From positions 4,267 through 68,266 of the forward strand of contig JAHIEG010000004.1 of assembly GCA_018901655.1 (NCBI GenBank): a stretch of 64,000 nucleotides of DNA, in the 5' to 3' direction. This document shows, piece after piece, positions 39,807 to 64,000 of the stretch; within the stretch, counting starts at the first letter, position 1, and each line of letters begins with the position of its first letter. Both the position numbers and the translations under genes were made by a program. A model generated the notes under the pieces. It worked only from the letters and a program-made list of their open reading frames with translations, was not told the DNA's origin and did no database searches. This stretch comes from Nanobdellota archaeon. GTDB taxonomy: Archaea > Aenigmatarchaeota > Aenigmatarchaeia > Aenigmatarchaeales > Aenigmatarchaeaceae.

Positions 39807-42800
39807 TTAAGCCCCACCTACAAAACCACAATCATCACACACTGCCAAGTCTTTTGTAAACGCAAAGTATTGTATTGCTGTTTTTGTTGCAATGTTTTTA
39901 GTTAATTGGGTTATTGCATCTGGGTCTGGATTAGCATCAGCAAGCCATATATGACTCATTGCTCCTCCATCTGTTAAAGGATGAAAGGATCCTTCTATTT
40001 GTAATCTTTTGAATAGTGGCACATTTGCATCTGGCCTTACGTGAAATGAATTGGTATAATATATTGATTTTGTATCTGAATTTCCTTGATAAATTACTTT
40101 ATTTGGATATCGTCTTTTATCTATCATTGCTAAACGACCACCCGTTGATTCAGCTGGAGTTCTTGCCAAAGCAAAATTTAATCCTGTTTCTTCTCTAAGT
40201 GCTGCTATCTTAGTTTTTAAATATTTCATTATTTTTAATCCAAACATCCAAGCTGACTGACTTTCATGTAATTCAGAACCTGTATAATATTTTACCATTT
40301 CATTAAATCCAATATGACCAATTGTATAACTCTGTTTTAAAGGTTCTAAGTATCTATCACCTTTTTCATTTACTATTTGACTCATGAAAGGTAACATTCC
40401 ATTTTGTAAATTCTTTTCTATTAAATCTTTTCTAAGAATCATAATTCTTTTAATCAATTCTAATCTCTCATCAATTATTTCATATATTCTGCTTTCTTCT
40501 TTATCAGACTCATATGCAATTTGTGGTAAGTTTAAAGTTACTACTTGTAATGATCCTCCTCTGACAGTTCCGTTTAACATGTCATCTGCATCTGATGATT
40601 TATCTAATGGCATAAGATAGGCACAACAGTTCGATGAAAATATTCCATCTGATGTTAAAAAATTATGATACTTTTCAACATTAATTAAATCATATACGTA
40701 TCGGCTTTTTACTTCTTCTATTTTCTTTACTTCAAATAAGTGTAAATCGCTTCTTATGAATTTTGAATATAATTCATCGTTCATTTCGAGTCTTTTTTCT
40801 GTTACTCTTTTACCAATTTGACACCTGTTCCAATGTCCTGTTTTTAAATTTTCTCTTTTAATATCAAATGGATTAACTGGGACCCTTTCATAAGAATCAA
40901 ATGATTTACCTAATATTGTAGGAACGTTATCAGAAAATGGCACTGATTCCAGAAATGAGCTCTTTCTTAAATTACTTGTTAATCTTAACGAATGAGAATT
41001 TTCTCCATGATATTTATCAAATGGAACCCCTATTCTCAAACCAAGTACAAAAATATCATCAATTAAGTCTCTATTACACAAATGTAAATCTATCTTATCT
41101 GAATTTGAACCGTCTCCTCTAAACATTCCAAGCATGAAATCCTTTATAATATACCAAGGAGAAGTCATGAGTATTTTTGGTACTCTTTTGGTTTTAGCAT
41201 CATAATTTGTTCCAATATTATCAAATAGTTCAACAAGTTCTTTGCTATAAACATAAACTGTGTTTGTATTATTCTTTTCTGAAATATCAAACTTAGCTTC
41301 TAAACCAAATTTTTCCTTAAGTATTTTAGCTGTATCGTCAATGTATTCTTTTTCTTTAATATTGAATGAGAATGATATCTTGTTATATCTTGTTTTCTTA
41401 TTTGCTATGTGCATATATCCTTCACTTGCAAAATATCCAAGAAGTCTTGCAAATTTAGCATCTATTTCTATTTTTTTATTATTAAAATCAACAAATCGAT
41501 CAAATTCAAACTCAAGTGGTAAATTCTTAGCACCAATTAAATAGTCTCCTTTCTTGACATCTTCCATTCTTATTTCACTTATCTTATTATTCCTCACAAC
41601 TGGTATTTTGTGTTTTTCTGTTCCTGAAAAAGTCCTATTTCCATCAAGAATTAATTTGAAAATCTTTTCTTTTGTTTCGTGTTTCATTACTTTTTCTATT
41701 TTTGTTTTCTTTATTTCAAGCGTATTTGTATCGAATGATATTGCATAATCATTACATTTTGATAGCTTAACTTTTCCTTCAATGCCGCTTCCTTTCTCGA
41801 CTATAGATTTTTTCATTATAGATTCAACATATTCTCCTATTTCGATATTTATGAGTCTATCATCTCTTAAAATCAATATCTTCTCTTCACCTGGTATTGA
41901 TTGATAACATGAAAATTCAGGCATATATGGCTGTTTAATTATGTAATATGGTGTTCCAAACTTTGCTGCAAGACTAGAAACTTTATACGTCTCTTCATTG
42001 TATCTTCCAGCTGCTAAATCTTTTGGATCCATTTGTACTTCAAACTTAGGAAAGTTAAATGGTTTTCCTTGCCAATCTCCTTTATCAAACACGTCTAAAA
42101 ATGCATTAAATAGTTTTCTTGTCTCATCTTCATAGTCTCCATAAGTTCCTGTTGCTCCACTTTTTCTTAATCCAATTATTGGAATGTCTTTTAACATATT
42201 TGGAACATGCATATCTAAATCGATTGAAGAAAATACAACCTGTCCTCCTCGCGCAACATACATTTGACTATTATGCAAAGCTATACCACTGATTGAAATA
42301 AAGTTCTGTGTTTCTTCTATCTCTAAATCATAAACATAAATTTCTTTATCTAATTTTTTAATACTTGTTATTTTTTCCAAGAATAGGTCATGGTTTAGAG
42401 GATTACAAGGAATGTTAGAAACATTCGTCATTGTTCCATTAAATGGTGCTAACATATAATCTGGCGTCTGTGGTACTCCTTTATTTTTTATTATATTTTC
42501 CAGTTTCAATGCCTTTTCATTCACAAATCCTATCTGATCCAAAAATTTCTTTGCAGAACTAATATCACATATATATAATAAATTAGAATCTTCATTTGCT
42601 TTTGTCTTTACTCCTTTGATAATAATCTCTTCTCCAGCTTTTCTAAATATCTTAGATTTAAATACAAGACCAAATCTTAAAAATGCAAATCTTAACTGTT
42701 CTAAAAGCTTTTTACTCGATGTTGTCATACCTACCATTCTTGAATCTGAAACATAACCGTCACTATTTACATAAGACTTTAAAAATTGTGACAATTTTTC

Positions 42801-44759
42801 TTTAGGTAAAGCTAATAGCCATGATGGTATTTTCTTATCTATAGCGTGTTCCCCCAGACCAAGAATGTCTCTAAATAACAAAGCCGCCAGCTTACCACCA
42901 AATCTTAAATTATACTCCTCTGCTTCATATGGATCAACTGACCCAAACACATGTTTTACACAAAATATGGCATCTTTTTTTATTAATTCGTTGTGGTCTA
43001 TACCAAGTCCTATTCCCATATTTTCATCAGAGGAATTAGTATAGCCTTCTGCAACATAGTATCCTATAAGTCTCAACAGTTCATCTGAAATACTTAATTT
43101 CAATGGCAAATAATATTTCTTTTTTGAAAATGTAGAAGATGTAACAAGTATATTTGATAAGACGCTTTTAGGCACATTATGTTTATCTACAATCTCTGTT
43201 AATTTTTTAAAACTTATTGTTCTTTTGCCTTCTAAAGCCTGTTTAACAAACCAACTATCTCCGATTTCTTTAGATGCTGAACCTAAAAAATCTATTAGTG
43301 GTTTGATGTTTGTAATTCTTAGCTTATGATAATCTCTTTTCTTTAATTCTTCATAAATATCTATAAATTCCTTGTCTATAGAAAAATCAATGTTTTTTAT
43401 TCCAACTATAAAATCATCATGCTTTAACTTAGACGTTTTTACTGGAACGATTTTTTCGCCATTAAATGTAAAAACAGAATGATGCCCCGTTAAACTAATC
43501 TTTTTGCCAAAGTTTGTTCTTATTTCATATAAATCAGATGCTTTATGTCTAGACACTCCTGTTATCTGCATCTGTTTAATGGTTCCGTTTTCATCAAAAC
43601 TAAGTGTTTTATATTTCCTATTTTTTGTTTTGACAATTTCGCTTTTACTGTATCTGTGAACATCATTACTATTATCCACTATATTATCAACAAAATCTTT
43701 TATCTTAAAAATTCTAAATTCGTTTTCTTCGTCTATTACTGGTATCTCTTCTTCTCCATCAATGCTCATTTCATAAATAAACATTTGAGCTAGTTGTTTC
43801 ATCTGCTTTTCAGATAATCCAGAAACAGCTGGTGCCATAAAAGTATTAAAGAATGAAAACCCCTGTCCTCCTGCACAATTAGTCTGTGATGCTGCTAAAA
43901 TTTTTGCAGCGTGTAAAAAAGCAACTTCTGCGTTTTTTGCTGGACCAGCTATTGATGTATGCCTTCCTGTTCCATCTGGTTTAAAACCGTGTTTTAGGAA
44001 AAATCTAACATCATGACTAAAACAAAATGGTCGACTAAAGAAATAATCCATATCGTGAATATGAATGCTTCCATTCATGTGTGCATTTGCCATTTCTTTA
44101 GGAAGGATTTTAGTTAATGTGTATTCTTTACTTACTCGGTCAGCCATTATTTTATGAATTGTTTCTGGATTATACTGTAGGTTTGCATTTTCTTTTGATC
44201 CTCTATTTATTATTTGAGTTACATCATAAACTGGCATTCCAATTCTTGTATATAGTGCTCTTTCTTTTTCATAACCACTTTCTAAAAGTTTAACATTTAC
44301 TATTTCTCTTATTAGTGGTGCAGAAACATGTTCAATATTCATTGCTTTAATAAATTTTTCTGTCTCAAATGCAATCCGATCTGCATCTATAGGATTAAGT
44401 TCTGTTTCTCTAACAATTGATTCTGCGATTTTAACTCTATCAAATCTTTCAAAGGTCTGCATAGAAGTGCTTACATATATTTCTCCTGCTTTGAATCTTC
44501 TTGATGCAGGCGAATCATATTTTTGTAATAAAGCATAAATTAAAGGTCTAATATCTGACATCTTTACTCTTGAATCAGCGTAGTTATCAATTTCATTTGA
44601 TATTTTTCTTGCTATCTCTTCAGAAGTTCCTGCTCTTAGACATGATGAAAATGTTCTATCTTTAGAATAACGTTCAGTTTTTGCTAACCAGAATAGTACG
44701 TTACCCTTATCTTTGGTATAAAAATCTTCAATTACTTTAGGAGATATCTTACTAGACAT
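39807..44759 (-). CDS. nrdD: anaerobic (class III) ribonucleoside-triphosphate reductase, large part, containing two inteins; ends inside the Zn-ribbon (…CDDCGFVGGA*)
   Basis: Exteins (aa 1-331, 831-950, 1378-1650) carry NrdD motifs (N-terminal ATP-cone-like region, …NCAGGQGFSFF…). Two insertions have intein Hint/LAGLIDADG blocks. Confidence 0.9.
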   Translation of the reverse strand: MSSKISPKVIEDFYTKDKGNVLFWLAKTERYSKDRTFSSCLRAGTSEEIARKISNEIDNYADSRVKMSDIRPLIYALLQKYDSPASRRFKAGEIYVSTSMQTFERFDRVKIAESIVRETELNPIDADRIAFETEKFIKAMNIEHVSAPLIREIVNVKLLESGYEKERALYTRIGMPVYDVTQIINRGSKENANLQYNPETIHKIMADRVSKEYTLTKILPKEMANAHMNGSIHIHDMDYFFSRPFCFSHDVRFFLKHGFKPDGTGRHTSIAGPAKNAEVAFLHAAKILAASQTNCAGGQGFSFFNTFMAPAVSGLSEKQMKQLAQMFIYEMSIDGEEEIPVIDEENEFRIFKIKDFVDNIVDNSNDVHRYSKSEIVKTKNRKYKTLSFDENGTIKQMQITGVSRHKASDLYEIRTNFGKKISLTGHHSVFTFNGEKIVPVKTSKLKHDDFIVGIKNIDFSIDKEFIDIYEELKKRDYHKLRITNIKPLIDFLGSASKEIGDSWFVKQALEGKRTISFKKLTEIVDKHNVPKSVLSNILVTSSTFSKKKYYLPLKLSISDELLRLIGYYVAEGYTNSSDENMGIGLGIDHNELIKKDAIFCVKHVFGSVDPYEAEEYNLRFGGKLAALLFRDILGLGEHAIDKKIPSWLLALPKEKLSQFLKSYVNSDGYVSDSRMVGMTTSSKKLLEQLRFAFLRFGLVFKSKIFRKAGEEIIIKGVKTKANEDSNLLYICDISSAKKFLDQIGFVNEKALKLENIIKNKGVPQTPDYMLAPFNGTMTNVSNIPCNPLNHDLFLEKITSIKKLDKEIYVYDLEIEETQNFISISGIALHNSQMYVARGGQVVFSSIDLDMHVPNMLKDIPIIGLRKSGATGTYGDYEDETRKLFNAFLDVFDKGDWQGKPFNFPKFEVQMDPKDLAAGRYNEETYKVSSLAAKFGTPYYIIKQPYMPEFSCYQSIPGEEKILILRDDRLINIEIGEYVESIMKKSIVEKGSGIEGKVKLSKCNDYAISFDTNTLEIKKTKIEKVMKHETKEKIFKLILDGNRTFSGTEKHKIPVVRNNKISEIRMEDVKKGDYLIGAKNLPLEFEFDRFVDFNNKKIEIDAKFARLLGYFASEGYMHIANKKTRYNKISFSFNIKEKEYIDDTAKILKEKFGLEAKFDISEKNNTNTVYVYSKELVELFDNIGTNYDAKTKRVPKILMTSPWYIIKDFMLGMFRGDGSNSDKIDLHLCNRDLIDDIFVLGLRIGVPFDKYHGENSHSLRLTSNLRKSSFLESVPFSDNVPTILGKSFDSYERVPVNPFDIKRENLKTGHWNRCQIGKRVTEKRLEMNDELYSKFIRSDLHLFEVKKIEEVKSRYVYDLINVEKYHNFLTSDGIFSSNCCAYLMPLDKSSDADDMLNGTVRGGSLQVVTLNLPQIAYESDKEESRIYEIIDERLELIKRIMILRKDLIEKNLQNGMLPFMSQIVNEKGDRYLEPLKQSYTIGHIGFNEMVKYYTGSELHESQSAWMFGLKIMKYLKTKIAALREETGLNFALARTPAESTGGRLAMIDKRRYPNKVIYQGNSDTKSIYYTNSFHVRPDANVPLFKRLQIEGSFHPLTDGGAMSHIWLADANPDPDAITQLTKNIATKTAIQYFAFTKDLAVCDDCGFVGGA
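40629..41909 (-). mobile_element. intein 2 in NrdD (about 427 aa) with LAGLIDADG homing-endonuclease domain
   Basis: Begins CYQSIPGEEKILI, LAGLIDADG motifs …FARLLGYFASEGY… and …FMLGMFRGDGS…, ends …VYDLINVEKYHNFLTSDGIFSSN followed by C. Confidence 0.8.
42270..43766 (-). mobile_element. intein 1 in NrdD (about 499 aa) with LAGLIDADG homing-endonuclease domain
   Basis: Begins SIDGEEEIPV (block A-like), LAGLIDADG-type motifs …LLRLIGYYVAEGY… and …LKSYVNSDGYV…, ends …VYDLEIEETQNFISISGIALHN followed by S. Confidence 0.8.
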
Positions 44760-47351: not shown

Positions 47352-49034
47352 TTATCTTAACTTAACAGCAACTCCTTTCTTAAAATCTTTAATTTCTTTT
47401 TTGTTTAACAACGCCATTCCTGTTATAATTGGTTTACTATCTGAAACTATCAATACTTCTTCTCCTGGATAAATATCATCTGTTCGTTCAACAAACTTAG
47501 TAAATAATGATCTTCCACTTTTTACATGCTCAAGTATCTCTGATGGTACTTCAACTGTTTTCATCTTAATATATTTTGATCCTTCTAAGGTTGGTATAAA
47601 GAATCCATCATGTGGTCTTATTGTTCCAAGTAATTTTTTGTTTTTCCAAACTCTTCTAATCCGTCCTGTCTTTCTTGAAACTTCTGTGCTAAAACTTGTT
47701 TTAAACTTTGAACTAAATTGATATTCAATTGTTTTATTTACAATATCACTATTACTTGCTTTACCAATTGGTTCAACCTGATCTGGAACTATTGATTGTC
47801 CAAATGGATAAACTCCTTTTAATTCGATTGGTACTTTTCCAAACGGTTTCTTAACAAAATATTTTTTAGATTTAACTCCTTTAACCATTTTCTTAGCTCT
47901 TAGAACTTCTGGTCTATATTTCGATTCTTCGCCACACCATCGCAATGCGGATTTCTTCGAGATTGGTTCGTTCCCCAACAAATATTTTCTATATTTTTTG
48001 AGAACAAATTGTAACGCCTCAAGCAATGCCGGATGTGCTCTTGCTCTTTGTTGTACTAACTCCCACAAACTATTATCTCTGATTGCTTGGCGTATGGATC
48101 TTAATTCCGCGAATGTAACATAAAGATTGTGTCTTGCCAATTCTTTTACTTTTGCTGAATTTTCTAATTCTATTAATTCTTTAACCGTGTATTTTGTGCA
48201 TATCGGACATGAACATGGCAACTCTATTAATTCTTCTAATCTATGCGTTCCGTAATTTGTCATATATCTATTATCATATGCGTATAATGCGTAGGCAGCT
48301 GAATCAAAAATATCAGAACCTATGGCAACAGCCAAACTCATAAAACTAGGCAGACCCAAGCCAAATGCGTGGAGCGGCTTATTTGAAGGTATGTTCATTT
48401 TCGCTGTTATAATCTGCTGGCATACTGTTTTAAAATCATATCTTATCATCTTCGGCACAATCGAACCAATAGCATATGCATCAAAATCTAATTTGCCAAC
48501 GGATTTTGCACATTTTTTAACAAGATCAAGGTGTTCTCCGCCTTGTATCGGAGCCATCCATGATATTTTTGAATTCTCTGTTAATAATTTGCATTCTTTC
48601 GCTCTTTTAATTGTTTCGAGCACTGTTTTTTTCGCGTCATCATATTTTAAATCTCCAGATGTAACATCTAAAAAGGTTCCAATGTCTGGTTTTATTTTCT
48701 CTTGAAATTCAATTATCTCTTTATTTGTTAAATTAATAGACGACCCGAACATTGTTTGATATGCCCCACTGTCTGTCATTATCATACCGTCAAAATTCAA
48801 GAAATCATGAAGTCCTCGTTTCGAAATATCTTCCATTAACCTTGATCTTTTAATCAGATACGCATTTGTAATTATTAGTTTCGCCCCAAATTCTTTTTTT
48901 AATTCGGCTGGCGTTATTATCATTTTCCCAGGATTTATTACTACAGCCAGTTCTGGGAGCACTATGTTCCGATCACCCAAAGTTAGTTTAGATATTCGAC
49001 CTGAACAATCACGAGAGAGAAGTTCTAACATCAT
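47352..49034 (-). CDS. tgtA: archaeosine tRNA-guanine transglycosylase (ArcTGT) with C-terminal PUA domain
   Basis: TGT catalytic barrel, Zn site …CSCPICTKY…, C-terminal PUA-like segment. 560 aa. Confidence 0.9.
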   Translation of the reverse strand: MMLELLSRDCSGRISKLTLGDRNIVLPELAVVINPGKMIITPAELKKEFGAKLIITNAYLIKRSRLMEDISKRGLHDFLNFDGMIMTDSGAYQTMFGSSINLTNKEIIEFQEKIKPDIGTFLDVTSGDLKYDDAKKTVLETIKRAKECKLLTENSKISWMAPIQGGEHLDLVKKCAKSVGKLDFDAYAIGSIVPKMIRYDFKTVCQQIITAKMNIPSNKPLHAFGLGLPSFMSLAVAIGSDIFDSAAYALYAYDNRYMTNYGTHRLEELIELPCSCPICTKYTVKELIELENSAKVKELARHNLYVTFAELRSIRQAIRDNSLWELVQQRARAHPALLEALQFVLKKYRKYLLGNEPISKKSALRWCGEESKYRPEVLRAKKMVKGVKSKKYFVKKPFGKVPIELKGVYPFGQSIVPDQVEPIGKASNSDIVNKTIEYQFSSKFKTSFSTEVSRKTGRIRRVWKNKKLLGTIRPHDGFFIPTLEGSKYIKMKTVEVPSEILEHVKSGRSLFTKFVERTDDIYPGEEVLIVSDSKPIITGMALLNKKEIKDFKKGVAVKLR

Positions 49035-50220
49035 TTAACCTCCATACAGATTTTTTATTACTTCCAATCCTTTCTATTGTGCCCATTCTTTGTAGATTAT
49101 TAAGATGTTTCCGCATAGTTATTTGTGACCTATCAAATCTTATCGAAAGATCTTTACTTTTAAGAACATCTTTGTTATCAAACTCCTTTAATATTATCTG
49201 TTGAATTTCTCCTTTTTTATATTGTTTATTAAACTTACGAGAAACTAGTGCCACTATCCTTTCTTTTTTGAGCATATGAATGAAACTTACCTTTTCTTTA
49301 AATGTCTTGATTTGATATTGTCCCGTAATTCCGAAACCTAGACATATCCTATCTCTTTCTTTTCTAGATCTCATTTTTCTAACCGCATCGGGACTTACAC
49401 CCAAACCTATCAACATTTTTCTTGTATGTTCCAGAAACTCATTCAGATTTTCTGCTATTTGTGTCTTTTTATCAAAACATATTCTTATGTTATTATGTTT
49501 GTAACATACTGTTCCTTCATCATCAAATAACGCCTGTAAGAATGCTGACTTAATTTCATTTGATCCGTTCAGAATCCAATCTGGTATAAAATATTGTTTC
49601 TCTGTCTTCTTACCATCTGGTGCTCCGCATAAAATTAATAATTTACCGATAACATTCGAAAATGTTATCATAGTTTTTACTTTATTTGTAACGGTTATAA
49701 CTTCTGTTCCAGTGTTTAGATTTTTTCCGAAGACTTTGACGACATCTTTCCTAACACTTTCAACCAACTCCTTTCTTGTATTTGAATATTGAAACTGATT
49801 TGCTCTTTTACTGATATGTCCATCGCCCATCGCATGAGCAACAAGTCTAGCCAAAGCAGCTGATGATACTACTGGCAATTTAACAGGAATCAGTTGATGA
49901 TGCTTACCGCGCATATATTTTATATTTTTCTCAATATCAGAATATGGTATTTCTGATAGCTTTGATATGTTTCTAATCATATGCGAACTAGCTAAAGCCT
50001 CTTCTCTTATTCCTTTTCTGTTTCGAAAGCCATTTTTTATTTCTATCACATGAGAATCGTGCATATTAAATATCTTGGCCAGTTTTTTCCACTCTCCTCC
50101 AGCGTTATATCTTGCTCTGTCAAATAGTTTTTTTCTGAATTCGTCGTTGATGCCGATAAAAATACTGTTTGGTAAATTATCTAATGATATTAAATTCGTG
50201 CGATCCGTCATATAAATCAC
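49009..50220 (-). CDS. free-standing HTH + double-LAGLIDADG + C-terminal winged-helix protein (intact paralogue of 2749..3887)
   Basis: N-terminal …GEWKKLAKIFNMHDSHVIEIKNGFR… HTH, …LARLVAHAMGDGHIS… (motif 1), …LQALFDDEGTV… (motif 2), C-terminal …HLNNLQRMGTIERIGSNKKSVWRL…. Confidence 0.65.
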   Translation of the reverse strand: MIYMTDRTNLISLDNLPNSIFIGINDEFRKKLFDRARYNAGGEWKKLAKIFNMHDSHVIEIKNGFRNRKGIREEALASSHMIRNISKLSEIPYSDIEKNIKYMRGKHHQLIPVKLPVVSSAALARLVAHAMGDGHISKRANQFQYSNTRKELVESVRKDVVKVFGKNLNTGTEVITVTNKVKTMITFSNVIGKLLILCGAPDGKKTEKQYFIPDWILNGSNEIKSAFLQALFDDEGTVCYKHNNIRICFDKKTQIAENLNEFLEHTRKMLIGLGVSPDAVRKMRSRKERDRICLGFGITGQYQIKTFKEKVSFIHMLKKERIVALVSRKFNKQYKKGEIQQIILKEFDNKDVLKSKDLSIRFDRSQITMRKHLNNLQRMGTIERIGSNKKSVWRLNDVRTSLS

Positions 50221-58738: not shown

Positions 58739-59284
58739 TTATAATTCAGCAGCTTCTTCTCTACATTCTGGACACGCCCATCTAGAATTAACACTCATTA
58801 AATCATCTGAATAGTTTCCACACAAATCACAATCACCGTCAGTGTTTTCTTCAAAGCTAGCTGGTGCTTCCATTAATAATCTTTCTCTAAGAATCTCAAT
58901 AGCTGCAGGGCATATTCTTGCCACTTCTCTATCAGAAATTATTCCTACCAACTTTCCTCCTTCTACAACTGGTAATCTTTCAAAACCATATTTGCTCATT
59001 TTCCTTGCCGCGTCTCCAAGATCCTCTTCTCCAGTAGCCATTACAAGATTTTTACTCATTATTTCACTCAATTTAATATCCTTACCTGTTAACCCTTTAG
59101 AAACTATTTTATTTACCATATCTTCTCTAGTTACAATTCCTACAATCTTACTTCCTTCACATATAACTAAACAGCCTACGTCTTTCTTTCTCATTGTATC
59201 TGCTCCTTCAACTACCGTTTGATCTGGTCTAGCTGTAACTACCTCGGTTACCATTGCGTCTTTGACTAAGATGTCTGTTACCAT
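58739..59284 (-). CDS. CBS-domain pair protein with C-terminal Zn ribbon
   Basis: Two CBS repeats (…VTARPDQTVVEGADTMRKKDVGCLVI…, …VMATGEEDLGDAARKMSKYGFERLPVV…) and C-terminal CDLCG…CPEC. Confidence 0.75.
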   Translation of the reverse strand: MVTDILVKDAMVTEVVTARPDQTVVEGADTMRKKDVGCLVICEGSKIVGIVTREDMVNKIVSKGLTGKDIKLSEIMSKNLVMATGEEDLGDAARKMSKYGFERLPVVEGGKLVGIISDREVARICPAAIEILRERLLMEAPASFEENTDGDCDLCGNYSDDLMSVNSRWACPECREEAAEL

Positions 59285-60457: not shown

Positions 60458-60639
60458 GTCCTTTTGTAAAAGGTTCAAAAGAAGGTCAAAAATTTATTAA
60501 TGATGTTATTAAAATTACAGAAAAATTATCTAAAAGGGACGAATATTCTCTAGAAAAAGGTACGTGTTGTTGTCCACAAAAAAATTATTATTTTAATATC
60601 TGATTAAGACCCACACCCCATCGTTTCCTAACGAACTGC

Positions 60640-60900
60640 TCTATATAATAATATATATAAACATTATTATATTATAATAACAGTGTTATATTTTTCATTT
60701 AAAATCGTTGTTATTTTTCTCTAGTTTTAGAAATGTTCCAAAGGAAACAGTGGTGGTAGCGACGATATTACCCCGTTATACCCCTATATTGCATATAAAA
60801 ATGAAGGAACGTGAAGTTCCATAGGCAGCAAAGGGGTAACGTGAAGATAGGTATAAATATGTTCACGGGACAAATCTACATAAGAAGTAGAGGTTATAAC
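60640..60900. promoter_or_regulatory. A/T-rich stretch + three CGTGAAG/CGTGAAC elements + GGAAACAGTGG ORB-like element immediately upstream of orc1/cdc6: candidate origin of replication
   Basis: Seen: A/T-rich 60640..60720; GAACGTGAAGTTCCA (60806..60820), TAACGTGAAGATAGG (60838..60852), ATGTTCACGGGAC (60859..60871, inverted); GTTCCAAAGGAAACAGTGGTGG (60734..60755). Confidence 0.5.
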
Positions 60901-62088
60901 ATGACACTAGAGAATATATTTGACAAATACATGAACAATAATAATATATTCACCAATAGGTCTGTGCTGTCAATTTCATTCACCCCAGAATCTATTCCCC
61001 ACCGGGAGGCACAGATGAACGAACTTGGTCGGATCCTTGCCCCGTCACTTAGGGGCGAGAAACCAAGTAATGTTTTTGTTTATGGTCGAACTGGAACAGG
61101 TAAATCTGTTGTTACTAGACTTGTAGGAGCAGAACTCGAAAAAAGATCAAAAGAGAATGGACATTCTGTAAAAGTAGTTTATTTGAATTGTAAGATGAAA
61201 ACAGCTGATACGGAATATAGATTACTGGCTAGCTTATCTAATGAATTTGGAGTTCATGTTCCGTTTACTGGACTTCCAACAGACCAAGTTTATAAAATTT
61301 TCTTTAATTGTATTGATTCAGTTAAACAAAATGTGATTATAATTATCGATGAAATAGATGCTCTTATTCAGAAAAATGGAGATGAAATTCTTTATAATTT
61401 AACAAGAATTAATCAGGATCTAAAAAATTCCACCCTTTCGATTATAGGAATTACTAATGATTTAGGATTTATTAATAATTTAGATCCAAGAATTAAGTCA
61501 TCTCTTGGTGAAGAAGAGCTTATTTTTCCACCATATGACGCTGTCCAACTTCAAGATATTCTTAGAAATAGAGCAGAACAAGCATTTGTTGTAAAATCAT
61601 TAGATGTGGGGGTTATTGAAAAATGTGCTGCTTTAGCAGCTCAAGAACACGGAGATGCACGAAGGGCTTTAGACCTGTTAAGAGTATCTGGAGAACTAGC
61701 TGAACGAACAGGTTCAATAGTAGTAAACATATCTCATGTTGATCAGGCAGAGGATAAAATAGATATTGATCGAACAGTTGAATTAATGAGAGCACAACCA
61801 AAACAATCTCAGGCTGTTTTGTGGTCAATTGTTAAAAACGATAAAAAAAACAATATAGAAACTGGAGATATAATTGATGTTTATCATGAGGTTTGTAGAG
61901 AGAACTGTCTTAAACCTTTAACACAAAGAAGGGTTTCTGATTTAATATCAGAATTAGACATGTTTCAGGTAATTAATACTAAAGTTATTTCAAAAGGGAG
62001 ATATGGAAGAACAAGAGTTGTTTCTCTAAACGTCTCTGATAATATTCATACAAAATTAACAAATATGTTACAACAGAATTTCTTGTGA
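60901..62088 (+). CDS. cdc6: Orc1/Cdc6 replication initiator
   Basis: Walker A GRTGTGKS, Walker B IIIIDEID, C-terminal wHTH. Start placed at ATG 60901 (MTLENIFDKYM…). The track's GTG start at 60811 lies inside the repeat region. Confidence 0.9.
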   Translation: MTLENIFDKYMNNNNIFTNRSVLSISFTPESIPHREAQMNELGRILAPSLRGEKPSNVFVYGRTGTGKSVVTRLVGAELEKRSKENGHSVKVVYLNCKMKTADTEYRLLASLSNEFGVHVPFTGLPTDQVYKIFFNCIDSVKQNVIIIIDEIDALIQKNGDEILYNLTRINQDLKNSTLSIIGITNDLGFINNLDPRIKSSLGEEELIFPPYDAVQLQDILRNRAEQAFVVKSLDVGVIEKCAALAAQEHGDARRALDLLRVSGELAERTGSIVVNISHVDQAEDKIDIDRTVELMRAQPKQSQAVLWSIVKNDKKNNIETGDIIDVYHEVCRENCLKPLTQRRVSDLISELDMFQVINTKVISKGRYGRTRVVSLNVSDNIHTKLTNMLQQNFL

Positions 62089-62092
62089 TTTT

Positions 62093-63040
62093 ATGGAAAT
62101 AGTAAAAGATTTAATGAAAATGGGAATATTGGTGGATCAGGAAGCTATTGATGCACTGAATAATCTTAAAGATACTGAACTTACTGTGGTTGTTGAAAAA
62201 ACAAAAATAGAAAGACCACTTGTATTAACTCCTGAGTTGGTTTCAATGTATTTGAAATCTACTAAATATGAAATTATTAAACAATTTGAGAGCAAGGAAG
62301 CTTATACAATTCAGGACATAGTTGAACAGTTAAATAAAAGATATGATTTTATTCAAGGCCTGTTAATGAGAAAAGTAGAACTGTCAAACATAGTTTCAAT
62401 AAATAAGTGTGAAAGTGGAAAACTTACTGTAATAGGACTGGTTAAGAAAAAAGAAGATAGTGGAACAAATGATATTCTTGAATTAGAAGACAAGACCGGA
62501 ACACTAAAAGCAGTTATTTCAAAAGATCTTGGTAAAGATATTAAAATTGATGATGTAATCGCGGTTTATGGAAACTATAATAATAAACTTTTGTTTGGAG
62601 AAACATTAAGATATCCAGATGTTCCACTTAGAAAAGCAGGGTGTTCTGAGAAAGAAACAAGGGTTAGTTTTATAATAAACTATGATTTTCAAAAACAAAT
62701 GGATATTGACTCAGAATATATCATAATTAGTAATTGTGATGGTTTAGACGGGGTTAAACAAAGATACCCAAGATCAAAAGTGTTTGTTATTGGAACAGAT
62801 ATTAGGTCTCCTTGTTTAATCAATATTGATGGCGTTGTGTTTATGATAATTTTAGATATTGATCCACTAAAAGCGCTAAAGAGAAGATATGTTTCGATTG
62901 ATAAAACAGATTTTTTGGTAAATACAGTACCAGATATAATTTTAACAAATAGGGAAATTGAAACGAACTATAAATCAATAAGTGTTATTAGTAAATCTGT
63001 TGAAATAAATTTAAAAACTAGAGAAATTAATATAATTTAA
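62093..63040 (+). CDS. DNA polymerase II small subunit (DP1)-like protein: N-terminal helical domain + OB fold, but short (315 aa) with no recognisable phosphoesterase motifs
   Basis: N-terminus MEIVKDLMKMGILVDQEAIDAL… and OB block …GKLTVIGLVKKKEDSGTNDILELEDKTGTLKAVIS… resemble DP1. No GDxxD/GNHD/GNHE motifs. Confidence 0.45.
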   Translation: MEIVKDLMKMGILVDQEAIDALNNLKDTELTVVVEKTKIERPLVLTPELVSMYLKSTKYEIIKQFESKEAYTIQDIVEQLNKRYDFIQGLLMRKVELSNIVSINKCESGKLTVIGLVKKKEDSGTNDILELEDKTGTLKAVISKDLGKDIKIDDVIAVYGNYNNKLLFGETLRYPDVPLRKAGCSEKETRVSFIINYDFQKQMDIDSEYIIISNCDGLDGVKQRYPRSKVFVIGTDIRSPCLINIDGVVFMIILDIDPLKALKRRYVSIDKTDFLVNTVPDIILTNREIETNYKSISVISKSVEINLKTREINII

Positions 63041-63345
63041 TAGTTCCATGGTAGCCTTTCTTTGAATTTACTTATATCTTCAGTTGATCCTTTTATTTCA
63101 TATTCAAAACCAGGAAGTACACTATCTTCTGATTTTCCAATTACTTCTACAGGAAAGTGCCGATTCACATATCCTATACTATATTTTTTTATCCAAGAAC
63201 CTTTTGGGATTTTAATTGTTTCTGTTATATAATCTACCTCATGTGTATTTTCATCATAACTTATATTTACCTCTACGTTTGTGTTAGAATCAACTTCTGT
63301 TGTGATAACATTTGAATCTTCAATCATGTAGATTTTATTATTCAA
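63037..63345 (-). CDS. hypothetical protein
   Basis: ORF only. Confidence 0.35.
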   Translation of the reverse strand: MNNKIYMIEDSNVITTEVDSNTNVEVNISYDENTHEVDYITETIKIPKGSWIKKYSIGYVNRHFPVEVIGKSEDSVLPGFEYEIKGSTEDISKFKERLPWNY

Positions 63346-63453
63346 TAAAAAGATATATAAATGTAATTAGCCCTTCGTCAATCGATGTATTTAACATTAG
63401 TAATACCTTTAACTCTTTAAATAATTTCAGGTGTAATATGATACAGTGATTAT

Positions 63454-64000
63454 ATGAAGTTACAGATTCTCGATTGCGATCATATTCTTGTAAACGGAAA
63501 TCCAGTAATAAGACTATTTTGTAAAGATGAAAAGGGCGAGTCTTTTTGTGTATTCAAAGAAGGATTTTTACCATACTTTTATTTACACGTTTCAAAAGAA
63601 TTCTCAAATGAAGATGTAAAATATGAGATTGAAAAACAAGGATTAAAATTTGAAGAAGAAGAAAAATTTACTCCAGTAGGTTATCAGGAAAAAGAGAAGA
63701 AAGTACTAAAGATAATTGGAAGAGATCCTGCTAAGATGTCAGAAATTAGAGAGTGGGTAAGTAAATTTGGAACATTGTATGAAGCAGATGTTTTATTCAA
63801 ATATAGATTTATGGTTGATCATGGTTTGAGAGGAATGGGTTGGATAGAAGTTGAAGGAAATCCAGTAAGAACAAATACAGTTAAGTGTAAATCGATTGAT
63901 GCAAAAACAATTACCCCGATTGAAGTTTTACAAAATGCGCCGTTAAGATATATGGCGTTTGATCTTGAAGCAATTGCTGCAGATCGTGGATTGCCAATTT
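63454..64000 (+). CDS. polB: family B DNA polymerase, N-terminal part (3' partial at window edge)
   Basis: N-terminal domain and Exo I motif …YMAFDLE…. Frame open to position 64000. Confidence 0.9.
   Translation, partial: MKLQILDCDHILVNGNPVIRLFCKDEKGESFCVFKEGFLPYFYLHVSKEFSNEDVKYEIEKQGLKFEEEEKFTPVGYQEKEKKVLKIIGRDPAKMSEIREWVSKFGTLYEADVLFKYRFMVDHGLRGMGWIEVEGNPVRTNTVKCKSIDAKTITPIEVLQNAPLRYMAFDLEAIAADRGLPI

Follow-up and report, generated by a model that had tools for sequence, protein, structure and literature searches.

In eukaryotes, the replicative polymerases belong to family B and are attached, through a C-terminal zinc module, to a B-subunit that is inactivated and resembles DP1, the small subunit of archaeal polymerase D (PolD). 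The origin of this eukaryotic chimera from archaeal PolD and archaeal family-B polymerase (PolB) is a long-standing question. In this study, we sought to characterize a short DP1-like gene located between cdc6 and polB in a 64,000-nucleotide (nt) stretch of contig JAHIEG010000004.1, hereafter the window, which belongs to an archaeal metagenome-assembled genome (MAG).

The docking of DP1 to its partner has been described at the structural level in PolD. Cryo-electron microscopy showed that the KxRRxP loop (R1131/R1132) of the Zn-III module of DP2, the large subunit, inserts in an electronegative groove at the interface between the OB fold and the phosphoesterase domain (PDE) of DP1 (PMC6355029). 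A Zn-III peptide of 20 amino acids (aa) binds DP1 with nanomolar affinity, and the helices adjoining Zn-III contact the PDE loops of DP1 (PMC6355029). In Aenigmarchaeota, Kazlauskas et al. (2020, NAR; PMC7544198) described a PolB group B6, in which B6-aenigma1 carries one zinc motif like that of DP2, and found DP2 to be absent from most members of the lineage. The same authors defined a set of DP1 sequences, named 'Aenigma_GB_GCA_002789635-like', that is inactive and co-occurs with B6 PolBs, and proposed its retention as a second subunit (PMC7544198). According to a study published in Nat Ecol Evol in 2025 (PMC12680538), no archaeal lineages other than Aenigmatarchaeota and Baldrarchaeia lack DP2 but possess DP1. 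In that study, the PolB of Aenigmatarchaeota was found to carry a shorter, 'degenerate' DP2 C-terminal domain (CTD), the two-zinc 'B6-aenigma2' sequences were attributed to Baldrarchaeial contamination, and DP1 was reported to interact with the CTD-bearing PolB in both lineages on the basis of yeast two-hybrid assays and AF3 models (PMC12680538).

Our analysis points to a similar pairing in the window. We propose that the short gene encodes an inactive mini-DP1 serving as the B-subunit of the adjacent PolB, which would bear a Zn-III tail, and we give this reading a probability of about 80%. The gene corresponds to the open reading frame (ORF) 62093..63040 (+), which has an ATG start and encodes 315 aa plus a stop codon. 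Its product is identical to NCBI MBU3904784.1, which is encoded on a MAG contig of 69 kb and bears the annotation 'hypothetical protein KJ906_01380 [Nanoarchaeota archaeon]', an annotation that can be improved in light of the results below.

Homology to DP1 and loss of the phosphoesterase site

The first-pass annotation of this DNA, made without database searches, had compared the N-terminal helices and OB fold of the 315-aa protein to the PolD small subunit, while allowing that it could be a misassigned OB-fold protein; profile searches and structure prediction had been suggested as checks. Results of both types of analysis clearly favoured DP1. The NCBIfam model of the PolD small subunit (NF003118) matches aa 2-194 with E=4.4e-18, at a score of 65.5 bits that lies below the curated family cut-off of 445. 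In Pfam searches, a sub-threshold OB fold (PF01336) was found at aa 112-161, and none of the models PF00149, PF12850 and PF04042 was matched (for PF04042, no match at E<=1). A phmmer search against 5.8 billion proteins returned three tiers of homologues. The first is a tight family of 298-330-aa proteins with 35-72% identity, the second comprises proteins of 336-394 aa (E=1e-16 to 1e-9), some of them with Metallophos_2 or DNA_pol_E_B domains, and the third, from E=1e-13, consists of canonical DP1s of 500-550 aa in which PF04042 and PF00149 are both present.

A profile built from 22 members of the short family (A1) was then searched against the PDB. It matched the DP1 of P. abyssi over aa 70-195 (E=4.7e-16) and that of T. 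kodakarensis equally well (~5e-16), while the isolated N-terminal domain of P. horikoshii DP1 (2kxe) gave a weak match (E=0.035). RPA2 (E=0.0088) and SOSS-B1 (E=0.38) scored far worse than DP1 at 5e-16, and the idea of a misassigned OB-fold or RPA-like protein was rejected on these scores. In the region comprising the linker helix and the OB fold (aa 73-173), the motifs SINK and LEDxTG are invariant and common to canonical DP1.

The AlphaFold2 model of the short DP1, built from a 45-sequence alignment, has a mean pLDDT of 91.7 and a pTM of 0.82. In this model, four N-terminal helices (aa 2-9, 16-23, 27-40 and 47-54) are followed by a long helix, by an OB barrel and by a C-terminal domain rich in beta-strands, the strands of this remnant domain having a pLDDT >90. 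When the model was compared with the PDB using Foldseek, P. abyssi DP1 ranked top (E=4e-16, TM 0.60-0.64), with an alignment spanning both the OB fold and the PDE of DP1. The next ranks were occupied by the B-subunits of human Pol epsilon, delta and alpha and of yeast Pol zeta/delta (E=7e-11 to 1e-6), including the matches 7pfo_A, 6tny_B, 3e0j, 4y97 and 5vbn (E=7e-11 to 1e-8, TM ~0.5-0.56). Lysyl-tRNA synthetase OB folds ranked only below DP1 and these B-subunits. DP1 homology extends over all three modules of the short protein.

The state of the phosphoesterase site was assessed in a joint alignment of canonical DP1s and the short family (A2), from which a table of motifs was drawn up. Canonical DP1s display five motifs, namely FISD-I-H, GD, GNHD/GQHD, YHG and G(D/H)xH. 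Among members of the short family, motif I reads N-(H/Y)-(D/N), with N-Y-D in the window protein, motifs II, III and V fall inside deletions, and motif IV has an aliphatic or other residue in place of its histidine (Leu in the window protein). In the conserved KRHL, Tyr or Phe stands instead of the histidine. All five motifs are substituted or deleted in 23/23 members of the short family, and the window protein contains no histidine in its 315 aa. A shortened phosphoesterase region devoid of metal-binding motifs had been noticed at first pass, and the alignment agrees: only 141 aa follow the PDVPLR hinge in the short DP1, versus ~285-305 aa in canonical DP1. The hinge itself is conserved in canonical DP1 and in the short family alike. 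Taken in isolation, the C-terminal 78 aa can be aligned with the distal PDE of canonical DP1 (hhalign probability 92%, E=7e-7), and the landmarks NP..I, KR(H/Y), (V/I)PDI, NYK and NLKTRE are common to both; the C-terminal region is therefore a trimmed PDE core and not an unrelated domain. Taken at the level of sequence, the short DP1 appears to be an inactivated, miniaturised DP1 with a PDE remnant of ~130-140 aa.

This reduction is found at several stages. Some motifs are kept by the 336-394-aa proteins, such as motifs I, II, IV and V in P0036 and motifs I and V in P0026. The series runs from the 550-aa active DP1 to the 336-394-aa forms with partial motifs, then to 315-330-aa forms with none and finally to forms of ~300 aa with an extra deletion. 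At its reduced end, the family is well conserved. The mean column identity in A1 is 58% among members that are 35-72% identical, and 33 invariant columns are spread over all three modules, the C-terminal remnant included. An exhaustive profile search of 1.84 billion representative proteins yielded 56 clusters at E<=1e-30, and the majority of the best 150 matches had 280-400 aa and were aligned end to end. The short DP1 is apparently maintained and not decaying, and the possibility of a pseudogene was rejected on the conservation of the family (33 invariant columns, 56 clusters).

The probable partner polymerase and the zinc ribbon in related loci

All nine complete partner PolBs (878-908 aa) extend past the usual end of archaeal PolB. 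In each of them (9/9), the extension consists of a PCNA-interacting-peptide (PIP)-like motif, Qxx(L/M)xx-hydrophobic-hydrophobic, followed by a 15-40-aa linker, a CxxC-x13-CxxC ribbon and a tail of ~20 aa. The ribbon contains an (F/Y)RR(P/V/I)xL loop. A profile of these tails (A3), searched against the PDB, matched the Zn-III module of DP2 from T. kodakarensis (6knb_B, residues 1127-1165, E=1.5e-7) and from P. abyssi (residues 1119-1157, E=1e-6). The alignment is near motif-for-motif (C.KC..(K)FRRPPL.GKCP.C.G). In orthologous loci, the partner PolBs have a zinc ribbon homologous to Zn-III, the DP1-docking module of DP2. The PIP-box-like Q..L.D-hydrophobic-hydrophobic, located between the thumb and the ribbon of these PolBs, is invariant (for example in L003, 13360..13659); the PCNA-binding motif of these polymerases would be internal and not C-terminal.

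The polB gene of the window starts 413 nt downstream of the short DP1, close to the 400 nt given at first pass, and exceeds the window end. Exo I, II and III are intact in the available fragment (FDLE, NLENFD and YCKVD), so proofreading need not come from DP1. Over the available part, this PolB shows 62-63% identity to that of L003, which has 890 aa and bears the CTD. The gene breaks in every recovered contig, at codon 308 in Logan (L002, 3628..4551) and at codon 437 in both the ENA contig L001 (11362..12672) and the 69-kb NCBI contig. The break at codon 437 lies just before PolB motif A, and NCBI lists the protein as 'partial'. No full-length copy of this PolB was found, the sole 100% match of the 437-aa fragment being the partial NCBI protein KJ906_01390. 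Such repeated breaks inside polB suggest an intein, a repeat or strain heterogeneity; the available sequence gave no evidence of an intein at the break point.

According to the mechanism that we propose, the short DP1 would no longer be the proofreading exonuclease of PolD, but a non-catalytic second subunit of the neighbouring PolB. The PolB tail would present, after its PIP-like motif and a short linker, a single CxxC-x13-CxxC ribbon derived from DP2 Zn-III, with its (F/Y)RRPxL loop. This RR-loop ribbon would dock, as in PolD, in the acidic groove where the OB fold meets the phosphoesterase remnant, and thereby tether the short DP1 to PolB. The outcome would be a two-subunit replicase in place of PolD, in which proofreading would be ensured by the intact exonuclease domain of PolB itself. 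The invariant acidic residues of LEDxTG, DD and PD are kept in the short DP1 and probably line the docking groove; the helices are gone from the PolB tail, as are the PDE loops from DP1. Invariant acidic positions of the short DP1 include E132, D133, D153, D154, D176 and D281. We infer from the sequences that this particular short DP1 binds this particular PolB through the OB/PDE groove. A strict co-reduction of the CTD helical bundle with the PDE loops was considered and rejected, since PolB tails just as short are already found with the 336-394-aa DP1 forms.

Gene order, rival explanations and surrounding features

Analysis of the genomic environment revealed a conserved order, consisting of a CBS-domain gene (−), a 238-aa HTH_3 gene (+), a spacer, cdc6, short DP1 and polB. 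The full order is kept in the window and in the loci L003/L004/L007, L005/L011, L006, L008, L009 and L014, and L010 holds the DP1-polB part. The distance between the last two genes is variable: in L003, which has no spacer, the end of DP1 and the start of polB overlap by 4 nt, 15-50 nt separate the genes in L006, L008 and L010, and polB is found 2.7 kb further on in L005. The less reduced forms P0026, P0028 and P0035 are located directly upstream of a PolB of 901-908 aa, with cdc6 in front for P0026 and P0028. The neighbours of three reduced DP1 grades were examined, and for each grade the adjacent PolB has a tail cut down to a single RR-loop zinc ribbon. A scan of GTDB representative genomes using one peptide pattern from the family alignment returned 5 loci, the MAG of the window not being among these representatives. 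In the window, the TGA stop of cdc6 (62086-62088) is followed by a 4-nt gap (tttt) and the start of the short DP1, as the first-pass annotation had stated. It had also seen no DP2 gene behind DP1; DP2 is absent from the whole 64-kb window, whose sole ORF >900 aa is an intein-bearing NrdD. With cdc6 directly upstream and a likely origin nearby, a core role in replication fits.

The view that this degenerate DP1 is an accessory subunit of PolB, already raised at first pass, is supported by its DP1 homology, its dead site, the cdc6-DP1-polB linkage, the Zn-III-like PolB tails in relatives and the pairing described in the literature. Some observations weigh against it. Because 413 nt and an opposite-strand ORF separate the two genes in the window, and polB has a putative promoter of its own, co-transcription of DP1 and polB is not assured. 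The zinc ribbon is assigned to the PolB of this genome from orthologues that are 50-63% identical, its own gene ending at codon 437. The partner PolB tails lack the helical bundle found alongside Zn-III in DP2 and in the CTDs of eukaryotes, which would make the interface smaller than in any solved complex. The absence of DP2 concerns 64 kb of this genome, and the short DP1 is a genuine DP1 homologue, as would also be expected of a small subunit of PolD that has lost its exonuclease and whose DP2 is encoded elsewhere in the genome. We consider this second possibility very unlikely, because Aenigmatarchaeota were found to have DP1 without DP2 in two studies (PMC7544198, PMC12680538) and, in all loci examined, the gene is linked to polB rather than to DP2. 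Moreover, the partner PolBs carry the very element of DP2 that binds DP1, and the PDE loops contacting the DP2 helical bundle are deleted.

The series from 550 aa to 336-394 aa (partial motifs) and 298-330 aa (none) looks like progressive erosion, as if the short DP1 were a decaying, functionless remnant left after PolB replaced PolD. Intact ORFs are nevertheless found in dozens of divergent genomes, in a large family with strong conservation that includes the remnant domain (33 invariant columns). The predicted fold is compact and confident (pLDDT 92), the position of the gene is conserved, with a DP1/polB overlap in L003, and a yeast two-hybrid interaction was reported for the lineage (PMC12680538), all of which makes a remnant the least probable of the explanations considered. 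A DP1-derived OB protein could otherwise have been re-purposed as a single-stranded DNA-binding or initiation factor acting with Cdc6/Orc1 or MCM/GINS, and not as a PolB subunit. Its proximity to cdc6 (4 nt) rather than to polB (413 nt) in the window, the 2.7 kb before polB in L005, the weak RPA2 profile match (E=0.009) and the retention of the N-terminal helical domain, which binds partners in DP1 and in eukaryotic B-subunits, would all be in line with such a role. However, the match to DP1 covers the whole length and not the OB fold alone, and the partner PolB has a dedicated DP1-docking element. We therefore judge re-purposing unlikely as a replacement for the B-subunit function, the two roles not being exclusive, since eukaryotic B-subunits do both.

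Within the B-subunit reading, the 298-330-aa family could tentatively be regarded as the smallest functional polymerase B-subunit known, at a grade of reduction beyond those described, which may also link the polymerase to initiation or to the helicase. The fixed place of the gene behind cdc6 and its retained N-terminal partner-binding domain give a hint of such coupling, as for Dpb2 and the Pol alpha B-subunit. If this rather speculative extension held true, the minimal polymerase/B-subunit interface would be a Zn-III loop in the OB/PDE groove, without the helical bundle.

Coordinates of the features identified at the locus are given below.

Table 1. Features of the cdc6-DP1-polB locus and its upstream region, in window coordinates.
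Feature	Coordinates	Strand	Evidence or remark
DnaG-type Toprim protein, 401 aa	56229..57434	-	Kept a few kb upstream of cdc6-DP1-polB in L001, L003, L006 and L014
CBS-domain protein, 181 aa, C-terminal Cys cluster	58739..59284	-	Conserved upstream of cdc6, 52-59% identity
HTH_3 (XRE-type) protein, 238 aa	59741..60457	+	Conserved immediately upstream of cdc6, 58-64% identity
AT-rich spacer between HTH gene and cdc6	60458..60858		Several inverted repeats; TACCCC/GGGGTA elements at 60769, 60779 and 60833, just upstream of cdc6
cdc6/orc1 initiator gene	60859..62088	+	Pfam Cdc6_C 1.7e-25, Cdc6_lid 6e-24, AAA; gene call in L001
Short DP1, N-terminal four-helix domain, aa 1-57	62093..62263	+	NF003118 alignment from aa 2; AlphaFold2 helices
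Short DP1, long linker helix and OB fold, aa 73-173	62309..62611	+	P. abyssi DP1 profile match; PF01336
Short DP1, PDVPLR hinge between OB fold and phosphoesterase remnant, aa 175-180	62615..62632	+	A2 alignment columns 279-284
Short DP1, reduced phosphoesterase-domain remnant, beta-rich core, aa 186-315	62648..63037	+	Motif table, hhalign, AlphaFold2, Foldseek
Opposite-strand ORF, 102 aa (96 aa in the L001 gene call)	63037..63345	-	Fills most of the DP1-polB spacer; overlaps the DP1 stop by 4 nt
Partner family-B DNA polymerase, 5' part (182 codons)	63454..64000	+	DNA_pol_B_exo1; Exo I FDLE at 63958-63969

The start of cdc6 differs according to the method, with a mechanical ORF opening at GTG 60811, gene callers choosing 60859 (409 aa) and the orthologue alignment beginning at ~60895. 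The 102-aa opposite-strand ORF, which does not appear in the first-pass annotation, has no family match in Pfam or NCBIfam, bears no similarity to the spacer ORFs of L014 and L015 and shows no conservation in relatives. It was therefore rejected as a component of the system. Between this ORF and polB, a TTTAAATA box was read from the sequence at 63416-63423, ~31 nt upstream of the polB ATG. This box is a possible archaeal TATA element, through which polB would have a promoter of its own in this genome. Upstream of cdc6, the AT-rich spacer could be a candidate origin or contain a site like the origin recognition box (ORB). Relatives do not conserve the TACCCC/GGGGTA hexamer in their equivalent spacers, and no claim is made for it as an origin motif. 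Conservation of the HTH_3 and CBS-domain genes was judged in the related loci that reach that far upstream. As the DnaG-type Toprim gene is also conserved near cdc6-DP1-polB, several replication genes cluster at this locus.

The window has a G+C content of ~30%. Further from the locus, it encodes an anaerobic ribonucleotide reductase NrdD of 1650 aa (39807..44759, −), in which Pfam detects intein splicing domains and a LAGLIDADG homing endonuclease. A 403-aa ORF (49009..50220, −), with LAGLIDADG_3 as its sole match, has a 26-nt overlap with the gene for archaeosine tRNA-guanine transglycosylase (47352..49034), at the start of the latter. This ORF may be a free-standing homing endonuclease or belong to an intein-split gene.

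Comparison with known systems

The closest counterpart is the inactive DP1/B6-aenigma1 PolB pair of Aenigmatarchaeota, with which the locus shares a DPANN-type genome, a dead DP1 and the absence of DP2 nearby. The single C-terminal zinc motif of PolB, known here from the orthologous loci, is likewise most similar to DP2 Zn-III. The MAG is labelled 'Nanoarchaeota archaeon' at NCBI, and relatives of both genes, P0012, L008 and L010 for DP1 and P0203 and P0205 for PolB, are labelled Aenigmatarchaeota. Given these labels and the matching features, the locus fits the published Aenigmatarchaeota system feature for feature, and the arrangement is already known and not new. The equation with the published groups (GCA_002789635 DP1, OIN85950) was made by matching descriptions and not by sequence. 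In the accessible parts of the published accounts, the subunit is termed 'inactive', and neither the truncation of the PDE to ~125-140 aa nor the cdc6-DP1-polB order is described.

Compared with canonical DP1 (P. abyssi 5IHE/6HMS/6T8H; PRK04036), the short protein has the same N-terminal helical domain, OB fold, PDVP hinge, distal PDE beta-strands and NLKTRE motif. It is, however, ~200-300 aa shorter and has lost the five metallophosphoesterase motifs, and its neighbour is PolB instead of DP2. With the B-subunits of eukaryotic Pol alpha, delta, epsilon and zeta (p70, p50/Pol31, p59/Dpb2), it has in common a DP1-derived OB fold and inactive PDE, as well as a family-B partner with a C-terminal zinc module. 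The PDE of the short DP1 is far more reduced than theirs, PF04042 being unmatched at E<1, and the PolB tail has one zinc ribbon and neither the helical bundle nor the CysA motif of the eukaryotic systems. The short DP1 belongs to an archaeal lineage, with no demonstrated ancestry to the eukaryotic proteins. The Baldrarchaeia PolB3-DP2CTD and DP1 (PMC12680538) share with the Aenigmatarchaeota pair that this locus resembles the loss of DP2, the retention of DP1 and a PolB with a DP2-derived, DP1-binding CTD. Their CTD is full length, with both zinc module and helical bundle, whereas that of the partner PolBs in related loci is of the short, 'degenerate' Aenigmatarchaeota type.

Relative to the accessible parts of the published accounts, what may be added here is the extent of PDE truncation, the graded series of reduced forms, the internal PIP-like motif and the fixed cdc6-DP1-polB order beside an AT-rich possible origin. 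These additions are refinements and do not amount to a new kind of system. Genomes of the Aenigmatarchaeota type carry a natural archaeal version of the eukaryotic solution, of which this locus is a clean example. It shows how far a B-subunit can be trimmed and yet be conserved, and would help to define the minimal interface between a family-B polymerase and its DP1-derived partner.

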